Below, piece by piece: positions 10,612 through 14,856 of a DNA stretch of 64,000 nt. Under the pieces are notes generated by a model. That model ran no database searches. It was not told the origin of the DNA and was given only the letters and a program-made list of their open reading frames with translations. The translations under genes and the position numbers were made by a program. This DNA comes from Gemmatimonadota bacterium (GTDB taxonomy: Bacteria > Gemmatimonadota > Gemmatimonadetes > Longimicrobiales > Gaopeijiaceae), in NCBI GenBank assembly GCA_034521595.1, contig JAXHMG010000003.1, forward strand, positions 1,984,001 through 2,048,000, written 5' to 3'. The stretch's first letter is position 1. Each line of letters starts with the position of its first letter.

Positions 10612-10847
10612 ATGGACCAGCTGATCACCGCCGACCCCAAGATCATGATGGGCAAGACCGTAGTCACCGGCACTCGGATTTCGGTCGAGTGCATCGTGGA
10701 ACGCGTCGGCGCTCTTGGCGAGCCTTGTCGACACGATCTTCCGAAGCTCACCCCCGTCTTACCCGCGAAGAAGCGGTGCTGGCGGCGATTACGTTCGCTG
10801 CGGCGGCGTTGAAAGCAACCGTCGGTGTACCCGACATCCGACGATGA
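10612..10847 (+). CDS. DUF433 family antitoxin (small frameshifts)
   Basis: AGGAGG RBS; MDQLITADPKIMMGKTVVTGTRISVECIVE ... HPRLTREEAVLAAITFAA. Confidence 0.8.
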
Positions 10848-10853
10848 AGCGGC

Positions 10854-10901
10854 GTGAAGCTGCTTTGTGATGAGGGAGTTGAACGTCAAGTCGTGGATCG
10901 G
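10854..10901 (+). pseudogene. DUF5615 PIN-like toxin, first 16 codons only
   Basis: MKLLCDEGVERQVVDR directly after DUF433, then cut off by the repeat copy. Confidence 0.65.
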
Positions 10902-10937
10902 CACCGGCTCCATCACGACCGTGATCGCGGTGTTGTC

Positions 10938-11093
10938 CAGGGAATGCGTCCCATTCAGATCTGGGTGCCGGACGTGCGCTCACCCGAGTTCCGGGCCGAA
11001 GCGCATCGGCAAGCGGCGGCTGTCGCCGAGACCGAGCACGAGGCGGAGGATCAGACCTTCATCGACGAGATCTCGGACCTCGGCACGGCGTGA
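10938..11093 (+). pseudogene. DUF3018/MazE-like antitoxin, N-terminally truncated
   Basis: QGMRPIQIWVPDVRSPEFRAEAHRQAAAVAETEHEAEDQTFIDEIS. Confidence 0.75.
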
Positions 11094-11162
11094 AGCGGGG
11101 TGAGACGTGACATGACGCGCCTGGATCGCGCCATTCTGGTCTTCCTGGGCCTCGCCGACTAA
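11090..11162 (+). pseudogene. PemK/MazF toxin with large internal deletion
   Basis: GTG overlaps the antitoxin stop; MKRGE is joined out of frame to the C-terminus DMTRLDRAILVFLGLAD*. Confidence 0.7.
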
Positions 11163-11482
11163 CCCTCTCCCTCCCCCTCCACCCTCTCCCGCACGACGTA
11201 GTGGGCCACCCGCTCGTCGAAGCGAAGCATCATCGCCTGGACCTCGTCCGGCACGACCGCGGCTTCCACGTCCTCGCCCGCGAAGCCGCGCACGGCCTGG
11301 AGCGACGTCCACTCCGTCACGATCCGGAACGCGGAGCCCTCGTTGAACTCACGGCGGAGGACGGTGGCCGAGACGAAGCCCTGGAGCTCGGCGATTCGGG
11401 GGAAGATCTCCGTACGCAGGTGCCGCTCGTAGGTATCGGCCAGCTCGGGGTGGGCGACGCAGGTCCAGTGGCGTTGGATCAT
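11159..11482 (-). CDS. Antibiotic biosynthesis monooxygenase (ABM) domain protein
   Basis: MIQRHW...GFVSATVLRR...FRIVTEWTSLQAVRGFAGED...VAHYVV. Confidence 0.75.
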   Translation of the reverse strand: MIQRHWTCVAHPELADTYERHLRTEIFPRIAELQGFVSATVLRREFNEGSAFRIVTEWTSLQAVRGFAGEDVEAAVVPDEVQAMMLRFDERVAHYVVRERVEGEGEG

Positions 11483-11565
11483 GGTGATGGCGGGCGGGCG
11501 GGGAACCGGAAGAAGTGACCGGTATGATACACCGACGGCTTCGGCGCCGATAGCGGTTCTGGTCG

Positions 11566-12207
11566 TCAGAACCGGACGAGCAACGCTTCGACAGAATTCC
11601 TGGCTCGCCCCTCCAAGCCGGCTCCGGCAGCAATCTTCTCCGCCCTCGTCCGAAGGTCGGCGTTTCCGGTGATGAGGAACGCCCGACGGAGGTAGTCGAT
11701 GGCGAGCAGCGGATTTCTTTCGAGTTGGTCAGCCACAAGCGAATAGTACTCCGCCCGCTCCATCAATCCCCCCAAAAAAGCGCTCAGCCGGACACGAAAG
11801 CCCGGGGCCCATTCCACGTATTCAGTGCGCACGAGATCGGAGGGGACTTCCGCCGCCGGAGTCTTCACCACCAGTAGCTCCTTACCATACGCCTGCATGT
11901 GGCCGAGCTCGAGGTAGATGTTGGCCAAGGTTGAATGGGGCATCCCCTCGTGGACCAACGCGACGCCAAGCGGTACTGCGTGCATCAACTCCCAAATCTT
12001 CAGGAGAAAGTCTCGACCAGTGACCTGACTGTCGGCATCGAGGGGGCGAAATCCATGCCGAGTCAACTCGTGTTCCAACGCACGTCTGATCTCGGGAAGT
12101 TGAGTTGGTGACGGCTCCCCAAGTTGGGTCATGACGAAGCACGCACGCGGCCGGTAACGAATGGGGGTCGTCGTTGCGTCCCCGTCCGTGGGGCGATACC
12201 GGATCAC
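11566..12207 (-). CDS. Nucleoside 2-deoxyribosyltransferase-like / TIR-like domain protein
   Basis: CFVM beta strand, LLKIWELM, ANIYLELGHMQAYGKELLVV, VPSDL motifs. Confidence 0.6.
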   Translation of the reverse strand: MIRYRPTDGDATTTPIRYRPRACFVMTQLGEPSPTQLPEIRRALEHELTRHGFRPLDADSQVTGRDFLLKIWELMHAVPLGVALVHEGMPHSTLANIYLELGHMQAYGKELLVVKTPAAEVPSDLVRTEYVEWAPGFRVRLSAFLGGLMERAEYYSLVADQLERNPLLAIDYLRRAFLITGNADLRTRAEKIAAGAGLEGRARNSVEALLVRF

Positions 12208-12368
12208 TCCTTCGTCGAACGCTTCCGGGCGACGGGGATCCCTTCGTACGGCCCTTCGCTCTTCTTGTGATCGATGATTTTACCCTGCGTCCGATCGATC
12301 TTCACATATCGTCCGGTCCGTGGATTCTTAACCTGGACGAGATCCGGCTGCTTGAGCTTCGTGGCCAT
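12204..12368 (-). CDS. Small basic hypothetical protein, 54 aa (not in the ORF track)
   Basis: MATKLKQPDLVQVKNPRTGRYVKIDRTQGKIIDHKKSEGPYEGIPVARKRSTKE*; GGGGA upstream; GTGA overlap with the next gene. Confidence 0.7.
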   Translation of the reverse strand: MATKLKQPDLVQVKNPRTGRYVKIDRTQGKIIDHKKSEGPYEGIPVARKRSTKE

Positions 12369-12463
12369 TGAGTCATCCCCGTTGTACGTGCCACCTCTCT
12401 GCCATCGCTACCCTCAGCCTACAGCCCCGTGCCACCCGGGTCCATGTCGCGTTGAGCCCGTCC

Positions 12464-13777
12464 TCAGCTCTTCACGATCCAGCCCTTCGCCCCGTCGCCC
12501 GCCTCGCGCGAGACCGCGTGCCGGCCGTCCACGAGCACGCGCGCATGCTCGACGATCCAGTCGTAGTCGAAGGACGAGTGGTCGGTGAGGATGACCACCG
12601 CGTCGGCCTCCTCGAGCGTCTCGGCGGTCAGGGGAACGGACGCGAGGGTATGGCCCTCCTCGTGGAGCTCGTGCACGTACGGGTCGTGGTAGCTGATCCG
12701 CGCGCCGTCGGCTTCGAGCAGCCGGAGCACGTCGAGCGCCGGGGACTCGCGCACGTCGCTGATGTCCTTCTTGTACGCGACCCCGAGCAGCAGCACCCGC
12801 GCGCCGTTGACCGACTTCCGGTTCCGGTTGAGCGCCTCGCGCACCTTCCCCATGACGAAGTGCGGCATCTCGGAGTTGATCTCCGAGGCGAGCTCGATGA
12901 AGCGGGTCTTGTAGTTGAGCGTCCGCATCTTCCACGACAGGTAGTGCGGATCGACGGGAATGCAGTGCCCGCCGAGCCCCGGCCCCGGCGTGAACCGCAT
13001 GAAGCCGAACGGCTTGGTGGCCGCGGCGTCGATGACCTCCCAGACGTCGACCCCGAGCCGGTCCGCGATGAGCGCCGTCTCGTTGGCCAGCCCGATGTTC
13101 ACCGCGCGGAAGGTGTTCTCGAGGATCTTCGTCATCTCGGCCGCCTCGGTCGAGGAGACCGGCACGATGGTCTCGAGGAAGCGGTCGTAGAACTGCGCGC
13201 CCGCCTCGGTGCACGCCGCCGTGACGCCCCCGACCACCTTGGGCGTGTTCTTGGTGGTCCACGTCGTGTTGCCGGGGTCCACGCGCTCCGGCGAGAAGCA
13301 GAGGTAGAAGTCCTCGCCCACCGTGAGCCCTGAGGCTTCGAGCGCGGGCAGCATGACCTCCCGCGTCGTGCCGGGATAGGTGGTCGACTCGAGCAGCACG
13401 AGCTGGCCCTCGCGGAGCGCGGCGGCGACCGACTGCGAGGCCGCCAGGATGTAGGAGACGTCCGGGTCCCGCGTCTTGGACAGGGGCGTAGGCACGCAGA
13501 TCGAGACCACGTCGCACTCGCCGAGCCGGCTCATGTCGCTGGTCGCCTCGAGCAAACCCTTCTCCCGGAGCGCCGCGACCTTCTCGGACGGGACGTCCTG
13601 GATGTGCGAGCGCCCCGCGTTCACGCTCTCCACGACCTCGCCGTCGATGTCGAAGCCGACGACCCGGATGCCTTCCTCGGCCGCCTCCACGACGAGCGGC
13701 AAGCCCACGTAGCCCAGCCCGATGACGCCGAAGGTCACCTCGGAGTTCGGAGGAAGGGTGCTGGAGCGGTCGGACAT
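12464..13777 (-). CDS. Nucleotide-sugar dehydrogenase (UDP-N-acetylhexosamine 6-dehydrogenase, WbpA/WecC family)
   Basis: GLGYVGLP, CVPTP, ESTTYPGTT, SPERVDPGN, KILENTFR, GLGGHCIPVDP. Confidence 0.92.
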   Translation of the reverse strand: MSDRSSTLPPNSEVTFGVIGLGYVGLPLVVEAAEEGIRVVGFDIDGEVVESVNAGRSHIQDVPSEKVAALREKGLLEATSDMSRLGECDVVSICVPTPLSKTRDPDVSYILAASQSVAAALREGQLVLLESTTYPGTTREVMLPALEASGLTVGEDFYLCFSPERVDPGNTTWTTKNTPKVVGGVTAACTEAGAQFYDRFLETIVPVSSTEAAEMTKILENTFRAVNIGLANETALIADRLGVDVWEVIDAAATKPFGFMRFTPGPGLGGHCIPVDPHYLSWKMRTLNYKTRFIELASEINSEMPHFVMGKVREALNRNRKSVNGARVLLLGVAYKKDISDVRESPALDVLRLLEADGARISYHDPYVHELHEEGHTLASVPLTAETLEEADAVVILTDHSSFDYDWIVEHARVLVDGRHAVSREAGDGAKGWIVKS

Positions 13778-13947
13778 GGCGTGAGCCTATCTGTGCAGGG
13801 GGAGAAGGTCCCGAGCGCAGAAGGATAAGCGGGCGGGGCCGGGAGTTCCAGGCGTGGACGGCGTGGGACGCACGGGGCTCCTCGCGACATGGAAGCGCCC
13901 GAGGCGGGTCGAGACGTTGCGAGGCACGTTGACCGGGCCACCTCGAC

Positions 13948-13976
13948 ATGACATTGTACAATTGTACTTATACCTT
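13948..13976 (+). promoter_or_regulatory. Sigma70-type promoter with operator palindrome for the TA operon
   Basis: ATGACA-17 bp-TACCTT; perfect palindrome GTACAATTGTAC at 13956-13967 with TGTACA core. Confidence 0.65.
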
Positions 13977-13991
13977 TCTTTGAGCGATCCG

Positions 13992-14387
13992 GTGGATCTC
14001 ACGATCGACACATCCGCGGTGATGGCGGTGACCCTGGGCGAGCCGTTACGGAGCGAGCTGATCGAGCTTACGAGGAACGTCGAGCTCATGTCGGCTCCGA
14101 CGCTCCCGTGGGAAGTCGGCAACGCCTTGTCCGCGCTGTTCCGCAGAAACCGCATCGGAGCCACGGACGCGCACGACGCGCTGGCCGCGCTCGAACGCAT
14201 CCCTCTGCGGCTCGTGGAGATCGATCTCACCCGCGCCGTCATGCTCGCTCACGAGCACGGGATCTACGCGTACGACGCCTACGTGCTGGAGTGCGCCCGC
14301 CGGCACCGAACGCCCCTCCTCTCTCTCGATGCCGCGCAGCAGGACGTGGCGCGCGCGCTCGGCATCGACGTCATCGAGGTGCAGTGA
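13992..14387 (+). CDS. vapC: PIN-domain VapC toxin
   Basis: IDTSA, WEVGNAL, IYAYDAYVLECA, LLSLD conserved acidic motifs. Confidence 0.88.
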   Translation: MDLTIDTSAVMAVTLGEPLRSELIELTRNVELMSAPTLPWEVGNALSALFRRNRIGATDAHDALAALERIPLRLVEIDLTRAVMLAHEHGIYAYDAYVLECARRHRTPLLSLDAAQQDVARALGIDVIEVQ

Positions 14388-14608
14388 TGAAGGTCTACAC
14401 GTACTCCGAAGCACGACGCATCCTCGCCCGGGTGCTGAACGAAGCGCGTGAAGACGGTGAGATCCGCATCCGGCGCCAGGACGGCACCGAATTCTCGATC
14501 CGCCCGGTCGAGCGGACCGGATCAGCCCTCGACGTCCCGGCCGCCCGCACCGACGTCACCCGCGACGAGATCGTCGAGGCCGTCCGCGAATCGCGACGGG
14601 GAGGGTGA
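14387..14608 (+). CDS. Phd/YefM family antitoxin
   Basis: MKVYTYSEARRILARVLNEA...IRIRRQDG; TGATG coupling to vapC. Confidence 0.85.
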   Translation: MKVYTYSEARRILARVLNEAREDGEIRIRRQDGTEFSIRPVERTGSALDVPAARTDVTRDEIVEAVRESRRGG

Positions 14609-14856
14609 AGACACGCATCATCCGCATCGGCAACTCTCGCGGGGTCCGCATCCCAAAGGTCCTTCTCGAGGAATCGGGTCTTGACGGCGATGTCGAGCTG
14701 CGGGCGAGCGAGGGAAAAATCCTGATCGAACGACCGCCCGAAGCCCGTGCCGGTTGGTCGGAGGCGGCACGGCTGGTCCGCGAGCGCGGCGAAGACGGTC
14801 TGATCGACGAGCCCACCCCCACCGAATTCGACGACAACGAGTGGGCGTGGGAGTGA
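14605..14856 (+). CDS. AbrB/MazE family antitoxin
   Basis: MKTRIIRIGNSRGVRIPK...PRAGW-like segment...EFDDNEWAW. Confidence 0.88.
   Translation: MKTRIIRIGNSRGVRIPKVLLEESGLDGDVELRASEGKILIERPPEARAGWSEAARLVRERGEDGLIDEPTPTEFDDNEWAWE

Follow-up and report, generated by a model that had tools for sequence, protein, structure and literature searches.

Background

In immunity, from bacteria to humans, TIR-like enzymes that consume nicotinamide adenine dinucleotide (NAD+) play a central part. Enzymes of the TIR type are generally switched on by induced assembly, and TPR units are protein-binding modules. A small gene placed first, with its stop codon overlapping the start codon of the next gene, is the usual antidote-first arrangement. 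Here we analyse a pair of overlapping genes, encoding a basic protein of 54 amino acids (aa) and a protein of 213 aa, in a 64,000-nucleotide stretch of contig JAXHMG010000003.1 (positions 1,984,001 to 2,048,000, assembly GCA_034521595.1) from a Gemmatimonadota bacterium; this whole stretch is referred to below as the window.

Three bodies of published work come closest to this pair. Swarozyc (Osinski et al., bioRxiv 10.64898/2026.05.01.722283) is described in the available part of the preprint as a DUF4062 TIR-like NADase with a helical stalk that acts by abortive infection, and as a single protein activated by, and assembling with, the phage portal. In Bacillus cereus, the accessible portion of the report on BcTir/Tpr (Liu et al., bioRxiv 10.1101/2023.05.26.542521) presents a glycosidase-TPR protein that depletes NAD+. 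The PDC entries of the PADLOC database, as far as the available text of their description goes, are 145 untested candidates, selected for being embedded in BREX, DISARM, type I restriction-modification (RM) or Hma systems (Payne et al., bioRxiv 10.1101/2024.01.29.577857).

In this paper we document the gene pair, its coupling and conservation, the fold and invariant motif of its larger product, its mobile distribution, and an asymmetry between the two genes in which the small one is often found alone and the large one never. With a probability that we put at roughly 0.45, the pair is a mobile toxin-antitoxin (TA)-like or abortive-infection module, in which an N-glycosidase with the fold shared by TIR domains and nucleoside 2'-deoxyribosyltransferases (NDT), probably NAD+-consuming, is restrained by its co-translated small partner.

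Results and Discussion

A coupled and conserved gene pair

The initial annotation proposed an uncalled 54-aa open reading frame (ORF) that overlaps a 213-aa ORF by the bases GTGA. Both ORFs are present, and bases 12204-12207 are common to them. The features of the locus are as follows.

12204..12368, minus strand: small gene, 54-aa ORF with an ATG start
11566..12207, minus strand: large gene, 213-aa ORF with a GTG start
12204..12207, minus strand: four-base overlap, with the stop codon of the small gene falling within the start of the large one (coding strand GTGA, plus strand TCAC)
12145..12207, minus strand: N-terminal beta-hairpin extension of the large protein, residues 1-21 (model strands 2-4 and 11-13)
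11800..12144, minus strand: predicted NDT/TIR-like alpha/beta domain, residues 22-136 (AlphaFold2 model and structural alignment)
11908..11910, minus strand: codon of Glu100, candidate catalytic residue in the motif N96-I-Y-L-E100-L-G (invariance in family alignments)
11569..11799, minus strand: TPR-like C-terminal helical domain, residues 137-213 (model helices and profile match)
11484..12438, no strand: inserted cassette, approximate limits (comparison with the empty site in a same-genus genome)

The overlap implies that translation of the two genes is coupled, and the whole cassette spends about 270 codons on both proteins. The protein record of this genome gives the large gene a product of only 125 aa (P0020), which covers 59% of the query at 100% identity; probably the first 88 residues, with their GTG start, escaped the gene caller. 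The family alignment, however, keeps the N-terminus from the GTG start. The large gene is evidently easy to mis-call, as it was here (125 aa instead of 213).

Relatives of the large protein are numerous. A collection of 5.8 billion proteins contained 907 of them at E<=1e-3, nearly all 211-220 aa long, 52-65% identical and unnamed, and an exhaustive search gave 226 cluster representatives. Scanning genome contigs with the single protein gave nothing and an alignment-based profile scan was needed; applied to one genome per species, it yielded 158 confirmed relatives, from which 80 loci were kept (the core loci). These span 17 phylum labels, including the archaeal Methanosarcinaceae, and across phyla the large protein is 45-62% identical.

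Directly upstream of the large gene, on the same strand, a small ORF was found in 79 of the 80 core loci, the exception (L062) starting at base 2 of its own contig. The stop and start codons overlap by four nucleotides (ATGA or GTGA) in 65 of these 79 loci and by one nucleotide in 4 more. The small family comprises 358 homologues. Mean pairwise nucleotide differences among the 79 small ORFs are 0.24/0.18/0.65 at codon positions 1/2/3, and residues 10-46 have a mean amino-acid identity of 71%, a pattern which indicates a real protein under purifying selection. Conservation of the small ORF and its linkage to the large gene, on which the proposal of a two-gene system depended, were thus found in the core loci and recur in the sister loci described below (43 of 46).

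Clustering of flanking ORFs revealed no conserved third gene in the 80 core loci, synteny being lineage-specific only. Neighbours were identified by scanning 150 of the 282 nearest-neighbour ORFs (loci L001-L040) against Pfam and PADLOC, and among these 150, with 132 further ORFs unscanned, there was no ThsA, CD-NTase or pyrimidine cyclase companion such as the TIR-using Thoeris, CBASS and Pycsar systems have.

Two core loci depart from the usual gene structure. In L048 (5848-6651) the small and large genes form a single 267-aa read-through ORF in a long-read bin, the junction being a run of nine A residues before the ATG; a natural fusion was rejected here in favour of a probable homopolymer error at that run. 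In L071 (5835-6059) the small gene is split between two frames. A kinship between the C-terminal half of the small protein and the N-terminus of the large one, considered from a MAFFT alignment, was dismissed as chance (hhalign P 0.51).

Fold and motifs of the large protein

The AlphaFold2 (AF2) model of the large protein, built on a 30-sequence alignment, has a pLDDT of 86.9 and a pTM of 0.84. Residues 1-21 form an N-terminal beta hairpin, residues 22-136 an alpha/beta domain and residues 137-213 four C-terminal helices. The N-terminus (MIxYRPTDGD) is conserved in the core alignment, and the hairpin is a conserved feature of core and sister families alike.

Structural matches by VIA-align, which cover model residues about 19-152, were led by the nucleoside 2'-deoxyribosyltransferase 6evs_B (Z 14.3, rmsd 2.3, 120 aa), followed by the NDT 7o62 and the IL-1RAcPb TIR domain 7fcc (both Z 12.8), MilB and the TIR domain of SARM1 (both Z 12.2), TIR-STING 9lmq (Z 11.6) and ThsB (Z 11.1). 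The top Foldseek matches were TIR-STING, NDT, SARM1 and DNPH1, together with MilB; E was 5e-4 to 1e-3 for TIR-STING, NDT and SARM1, with TIR-STING 9lmq the best (5e-4). The large protein is therefore predicted to have a flavodoxin-like alpha/beta fold of the NDT/TIR type with a parallel beta sheet, and the fold assigned in the initial annotation is borne out by the model (Z 14.3 for NDT and 12-13 for TIR, with Foldseek in agreement).

All of the motifs quoted earlier for the 213-aa protein occur in its translation, as C23FVM, N96IYLELG, G108K and V121PSDL. The candidate catalytic glutamate, Glu100 in N96IYLELG, is invariant in the family alignments. N96 and E100 are unchanged in 30/30 core sequences and in 28/28 core and sister sequences; G102, G108 and K109 do not vary within the core family and are nearly invariant once the sister family is included. 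In the model Glu100 lies in helix 91-106, after the third strand (80-85). When aligned by hhalign with three NDT/DNPH1-like proteins of related genomes, Glu100 falls on their invariant glutamate, at a weak score (P 0.0032, probability 9.9%).

The sequence link to TIR domains is by transitivity only. A sister-family relative (P0224; E 1.3e-12 to the query) matches PF10137, the CAP12/Pycsar TIR family, at 29 bits where the cut-off is 24.7, and also weakly matches the PADLOC models of CBASS TIR effectors, PycTIR and PDC-S35. Family-profile searches of the PDB gave chance matches only for two alignments; a third returned TPR proteins plus Cap12 (E 0.18) and NDT (E 1).

The helical C-terminal extension reported in the initial annotation is also present in the model, as helices 137-161, 166-180, 184-195 and 206-211, and in the wider family it is TPR-like. 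Between positions 155 and 199 the profile of core and sister sequences matches consensus TPR proteins (E 5e-10), and sister-family members match Pfam TPR models below the cut-off.

A further uncharacterised branch of the TIR/NDT-like group was seen in two loci of the same phylum. L085 (1496-2605, minus strand) and L086 encode proteins of 369-372 aa in which a C-terminal domain sharing the CFVM, NVxYELG and PxDL motifs of the large protein follows a long basic N-terminal region; in L085 this domain matches the NDT model PF05014 below its cut-off (E 3.3e-5).

A sister family and the PADLOC candidate PDC-S38

The large protein has a sister family of about 235 aa, roughly 30% identical to the core family. 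Since the full alignment was too diverse, metagenomes were scanned with a subset alignment of the sister family, which gave 56 loci; ten were set aside, six because a contig end cuts off the N-terminus of the large gene and four as weak partial matches. A small-family ORF lies directly upstream in 43 of the 46 evaluable loci, and the three misses have less than 80 nucleotides (nt) of upstream sequence. Of the 43 pairs, 30 belong to the sister type, their genes separated by -1 to +11 nt, and 13 to the core type.

The small protein of the window matches PADLOC PDC-S38 (model PDLC05010; E 8.9e-11) and phrog_12550 (E 1.8e-8). As the PDC-S38 match is restricted to positions 20-53 of the 57 in the model, we place this protein in a sister branch of PDC-S38. 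Sister-type small proteins are full-length PDC-S38 (model positions 1-55, E 6.6e-23 and 1.3e-18), and they are paired with a large gene, so that PDC-S38 in many genomes is one half of a two-gene unit. Its status as a single-gene ('S' class) candidate does not hold in these loci, in which small and TIR-like genes come coupled (79/80 and 43/46). The larger half has no strong model in PADLOC-DB: version 2.0.0 gave no match for the window protein, P0241, P0200 or P0196, and weak TIR-effector matches only for P0224 and P0205. The PADLOC entry can be corrected accordingly, the 'single-gene' PDC-S38 often being the small half of a unit whose larger half the database lacks.

These matches also qualify the earlier description of the pair as undescribed. 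The part that concerns the literature stands, since a literature search found no published description of the pair and no paper naming PDC-S38, a search that did not cover the supplementary tables of Payne et al., which may hold details of PDC-S38. The part that concerns the small protein does not, given its PDC-S38 match.

The small protein

The small protein contains 14 lysine and arginine residues among its 54 and has a pI of 10.2; the median charge of its family is +11.6. The large protein is mildly acidic. AF2 predicts a three-stranded beta sheet (residues 10-14, 21-25 and 30-34) followed by an extended basic tail, the best model having a pLDDT of 80.7 and the five models ranging from 55 to 81. 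No fold could be assigned from structural matches (best VIA-align Z 2.7; best BFVD E 7e-3, to an uncharacterised protein), and no DNA-binding fold of the ribbon-helix-helix (RHH), helix-turn-helix (HTH) or AbrB type was recognisable.

The small gene occurs alone and the large gene does not

In every evaluable core and sister locus the large protein is accompanied by the small one. Relatives of the large protein were absent from 2.9 million viral contigs, 50,697 phage records and 72,556 plasmids, and the sister protein P0241 gave 8 weak partial plasmid matches only and 0 phage matches. Small-family genes without a large partner were found in 9 viral contigs, 15 phage records and 55 plasmid records; for the small protein of the window itself tblastn gave no match in phages or plasmids, and it was a sister-type small protein that did match. 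A stand-alone small gene without a TIR-like neighbour was also found in 2 of the 301 genomes sampled from the phylum of the window. In genome G238 (L087) an intact small gene accompanies a large gene disrupted by a frameshift and an in-frame TGA. An asymmetry of this kind, with the large gene never alone and the small gene often alone, is typical of toxin-antidote pairs.

Portal, head-morphogenesis or terminase genes surround the small gene in five of the nine viral contigs (L092, L093, L095, L098 and L099). This setting bears on an alternative that we regard as unlikely, in which the small protein first binds nucleic acid of an invader, or a component of the phage head or portal, after which it recruits the TIR-like protein by the TPR-like tail of the latter and makes it oligomerise, so activating cleavage of NAD+ or another nucleotide. 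The idea draws on the activation of TIR enzymes by assembly, including that of Swarozyc with the phage portal in the part of that work available, and on the protein-binding nature of TPR units; it would also account for a small protein more basic than its partner needs, for the high conservation expected of a protein with a conserved ligand, and for the position of the phage homologues beside portal, head-morphogenesis and terminase genes. It leaves unexplained, however, why the large gene is never alone and the small gene is often alone on phages and plasmids, and why the decayed copy in G238 kept the small gene and lost the large one, and the small-first order with overlapping stop and start codons is the one usual for an antidote.

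The small gene is also found in other company. In a Streptococcus and a Staphylococcus temperate phage it is oriented with the repressor and integrase genes, against the flanking early genes. On a Clavibacter plasmid (L165, 2501-2892) a PDC-S38-type small gene is followed 2 nt downstream by a DUF2188 gene, and in L083 (3967-5808) a gene of the same type is followed 40 nt downstream by one for a 522-aa SDR-type protein.

These arrangements are relevant to a second alternative, distinctly unlikely in our estimate, according to which the small protein is a DNA- or RNA-binding regulator, or a first-line exclusion factor, in its own right (the PDC-S38 reading), and the TIR-like protein has been added to keep watch over it and to fire if a phage puts it out of action. 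Such a guard would fit a small family that is widespread independently of the large protein (55 plasmid and 15 phage records), that is transcribed in the repressor and integrase direction in the temperate phages just mentioned, that has other downstream partners (SDR-type and DUF2188), and that PADLOC, in the part of its description available, lists as a single-gene candidate embedded in known systems. Against it, the small protein is not known to have any activity of its own, and its fold has no informative match. The present data cannot separate the guard from the TA-like model, and restraint of the large protein by the small one is common to both.

Mobility and genomic context

A full-length pair was found in 4 of the 301 sampled genomes of the phylum, one of the four being decayed. 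Six genomes of the same genus lacked the pair in a DNA search that did find its flanking genes. In one of these, G302 (L105), blocks matching window positions 11189-11483 and 12439-12786 abut, which constitutes an empty site; in another, G303 (L104), the same flanks are 2.1 kb apart and enclose genes for an AAA_14/DUF4143 ATPase and a Methyltransf_24 methyltransferase. The two comparisons put the cassette at about 955 bp (roughly 11484-12438) and show its site to be a variable hotspot. Across 11400-12599 the GC content in 400-nt windows is 0.588-0.627, against 0.645-0.757 in the flanks, and the lower GC that had been noted for the pair is thus real. Around the cassette only short repeats at chance level were found in the search for flanking repeats and att-like sites, and a terminator scan around the pair gave one terminator-like site, no more than expected. 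The immediate neighbours on the same strand are genes for a UDP-glucose/GDP-mannose dehydrogenase (12464-13777) and an ABM-like protein (11159-11482).

On a quick tree of 79 large proteins the 17 phylum labels require 26 changes, the minimum being 16, and cross-phylum sister pairs have support of at least 96. The seven Methanosarcinaceae proteins form one clade nested among bacteria. Transfer of the pair across phyla is evident from this tree of sequences.

Beyond the window, a conflict context was observed for a minority of loci.

L013, 3350-9832: pair between type III Mod and Res genes, on the same strand, in a gammaproteobacterial bin
L012, 4673-11124: pair between an AbiEi gene and the S and R genes of a type I RM system, in a Halioglobus bin
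L032: pair adjoins a gene for an SngC/BrxHI-like helicase (E 1e-262)
L031: pair adjoins PDC-S14
L011: pair adjoins a gene for a PDC-S37/Mko-like helicase

PADLOC matches to ABC transporters, NrdG and PolA were judged generic and were not counted as defence. With regard to the neighbourhood predicted in the initial annotation, co-occurrence of the small and large genes proved strict and enrichment in defence islands weak (5 of 40 loci).

In some lineages the pair has a fixed seat. In all seven Methanosarcinaceae loci (L010, L026 and L037 from the scan; L025, L042, L047 and L049 from clustering) it is co-directional inside a tetrapyrrole gene cluster, with glutamyl-tRNA reductase and ALA dehydratase genes upstream and glutamate-1-semialdehyde aminotransferase and porphobilinogen deaminase genes downstream. 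In Vicinamibacterales (L020 and L030 from the scan; L041 and L054 from clustering) it lies between genes for subunits of an Nqr/Rnf-type complex, with gaps of 4-7 nt in place of the usual overlap.

Such seats invite a metabolic explanation, which we hold to be improbable: the large protein would be an NDT-, DNPH1- or LOG-like N-glycosidase or transferase serving nucleotide salvage or the clean-up of modified nucleotides, and the small protein a chaperone, a regulator or the product of an unrelated co-transcribed gene. It would agree with the best structural match, a nucleoside 2'-deoxyribosyltransferase at Z 14.3, with mostly housekeeping neighbours and a co-directional place inside operons, and with high sequence conservation and a weak association with defence genes. 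It does not agree with a very patchy distribution (4/301 genomes of the phylum and 0/6 of the same genus by DNA search), with a site in a variable hotspot and transfer between phyla, or with an obligate, strongly basic partner of 50 aa that has relatives on phages and plasmids; moreover, by sequence the closest families are the CBASS and Pycsar effector TIR domains.

TA-type genes in the window

The pair had been described as lying among TA modules, and the window does contain clear PF11455 and PIN matches, plus Phd/YefM and MazE/AbrB matches under the cut-off and a DUF433 fragment.

10612-10809: DUF433 fragment, matching the first 29 of 56 model positions
10854-11093: MazE-like PF11455 antitoxin (E 2.6e-21, ORF residues 17-76)
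13854-14387: PIN protein (E 9e-10)
14387-14605: Phd/YefM-like ORF (E 1.4e-5, under the Pfam cut-off)
14605-14856: MazE/AbrB-like ORF (E 1.5e-4, under the Pfam cut-off)

The remainder of the DUF433 fragment appears to run on in another frame, and no toxin gene follows the MazE-like ORF; positions 10612-11093 hold decayed TA remnants. The last three ORFs are consecutive and lie between two sugar-nucleotide genes (13854-14856). No partner toxin was identified for the Phd/YefM-like and MazE/AbrB-like ORFs (14387-14856).

Proposed mode of action

The TA-like or abortive-infection reading is built on the predicted fold with its invariant glutamate motif, on the obligate antidote-first coupling, on the asymmetry between a large gene that is never alone and a small gene that often is, including the decayed copy that keeps the small gene, and on a patchy distribution borne by hotspots. 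The conflict context of a minority of loci (L011, L012, L013, L031 and L032) and the TA genes and remnants of the window itself also speak for it. It has precedent in the helical-stalk TIR-like NADases of Swarozyc and in the glycosidase-TPR NADase of BcTir/Tpr, as far as the available parts of those two reports describe them.

From these data we infer the catalysis, the substrate, the binding of the two proteins, the inhibitory direction and an anti-phage role of the pair. The large protein would most likely consume NAD+ or a related nucleotide by means of Glu100. The small protein would be its obligatory partner, synthesised before it from a shared transcript through coupled translation, and would bind the enzyme and hold it inactive. 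If the small protein were lost, titrated or degraded, for example upon phage infection or loss of the element, the enzyme would be freed, deplete its nucleotide substrate and arrest the cell. Small proteins that stand alone on phages and plasmids may then act as antidotes.

Several observations weigh against this proposal. It is drawn from sequence and predicted structure. The large protein of the window matches no model in Pfam (0 families at E<=1), NCBIfam or PADLOC, and Glu100 is a candidate equivalent of the catalytic glutamate on the strength of a weak profile alignment and of topology. The charge of the small protein exceeds what a mildly acidic partner would need, which suggests a nucleic-acid target of its own, and the head-gene setting of the viral copies could mean a structural or packaging role and not that of an antidote. 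Both proteins are unusually conserved for a module engaged in an arms race (small core 71%, large 45-62%). Neighbours are mostly unrelated housekeeping genes, often co-directional (haem, nqr/rnf, tyrS, nrdD, polA and coaX/birA/lipA); credible defence neighbours occur in just 5 of the 40 loci scanned, with TA or transposase genes in 4 more (L004, L016, L035 and L039). The seat inside operons is stable in some lineages, as in the seven Methanosarcinaceae loci. Finally, a promoter scan found no promoter-like site upstream of the pair.

A broader proposal, which we consider doubtful, is that small proteins of the PDC-S38 superfamily are the universal antidote to an unrecognised family of TIR-TPR toxins and that the stand-alone copies of phages and plasmids serve in counter-defence. 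If true, this would be the first TIR-type toxin-antidote or abortive-infection system with phage-borne antidote mimics, present in at least 17 phyla and in methanogenic archaea. Were the antidote reading correct, copies of the small gene in head and portal blocks could be packaged and delivered with the DNA. The stand-alone small proteins of phages and plasmids offer a directly testable handle on counter-defence.

Comparison with known systems

The TIR domains of CBASS Cap12 and Pycsar PycTIR (PF10137) have the fold and the NIxxExG...GK type of motif in common with the large protein. CBASS and Pycsar, however, include a cyclase, a CD-NTase or a cyclic-nucleotide sensor domain, none of which accompanies the pair in the loci scanned. 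Unlike the PF10137 effectors, the window protein has an N-terminal hairpin of its own, a TPR-like tail and a small partner, and it reaches no Pfam TIR model.

NDT, DNPH1 and MilB (PF05014 clan) provide the best structural matches of the large protein (6evs, 7o62 and MilB). These are stand-alone metabolic enzymes which, unlike the large protein, have neither a TPR-like tail nor a coupled small partner.

As presented in the available part of its description, Swarozyc resembles the large protein in having a helical stalk after a TIR-like domain of about 200 residues, a glutamate near position 100 (the catalytic E97 in KpSwz) and a sequence far from canonical TIR and NDT. A link to the phage head is also common to both, Swarozyc being activated by the portal and the phage homologues of the small partner lying beside portal genes. 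Swarozyc is nevertheless a single protein, whereas the pair, known from sequence alone, has an obligate small partner. Membership of the window protein in DUF4062 was considered and rejected, there being no DUF4062 match even at E<=1.

BcTir/Tpr, in the accessible portion of its report, is like the pair a two-gene operon, described as anti-phage, and its core protein combines an N-terminal NAD+ glycosidase with a C-terminal TPR region. Its partner is a TIR-domain protein, whereas here the partner is a basic protein of 50 aa; the likeness is one of description.

PDC-S38 of PADLOC is, like the small protein of the window, a small basic protein associated with mobile genetic elements, and its model matches that protein. 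It is filed as an untested single-gene candidate, whereas the small protein here is half of an obligate pair.

Type II TA modules share with the pair two small co-directional genes, the smaller one first, a 4-nt overlap of stop and start codons, a patchy mobile distribution, orphan antidotes, and phage and plasmid copies of the small gene only. They differ in that neither protein of the pair matches a known TA family and in that the conservation of the small protein is far above what is usual for antitoxins. We rate the pair as a variant among TIR-like effector modules, one for which no earlier description was found. Each newly found means of controlling TIR-like enzymes has been informative, and to those already known this pair would add a minimal architecture, in which one partner of about 50 residues provides the whole of the regulation.

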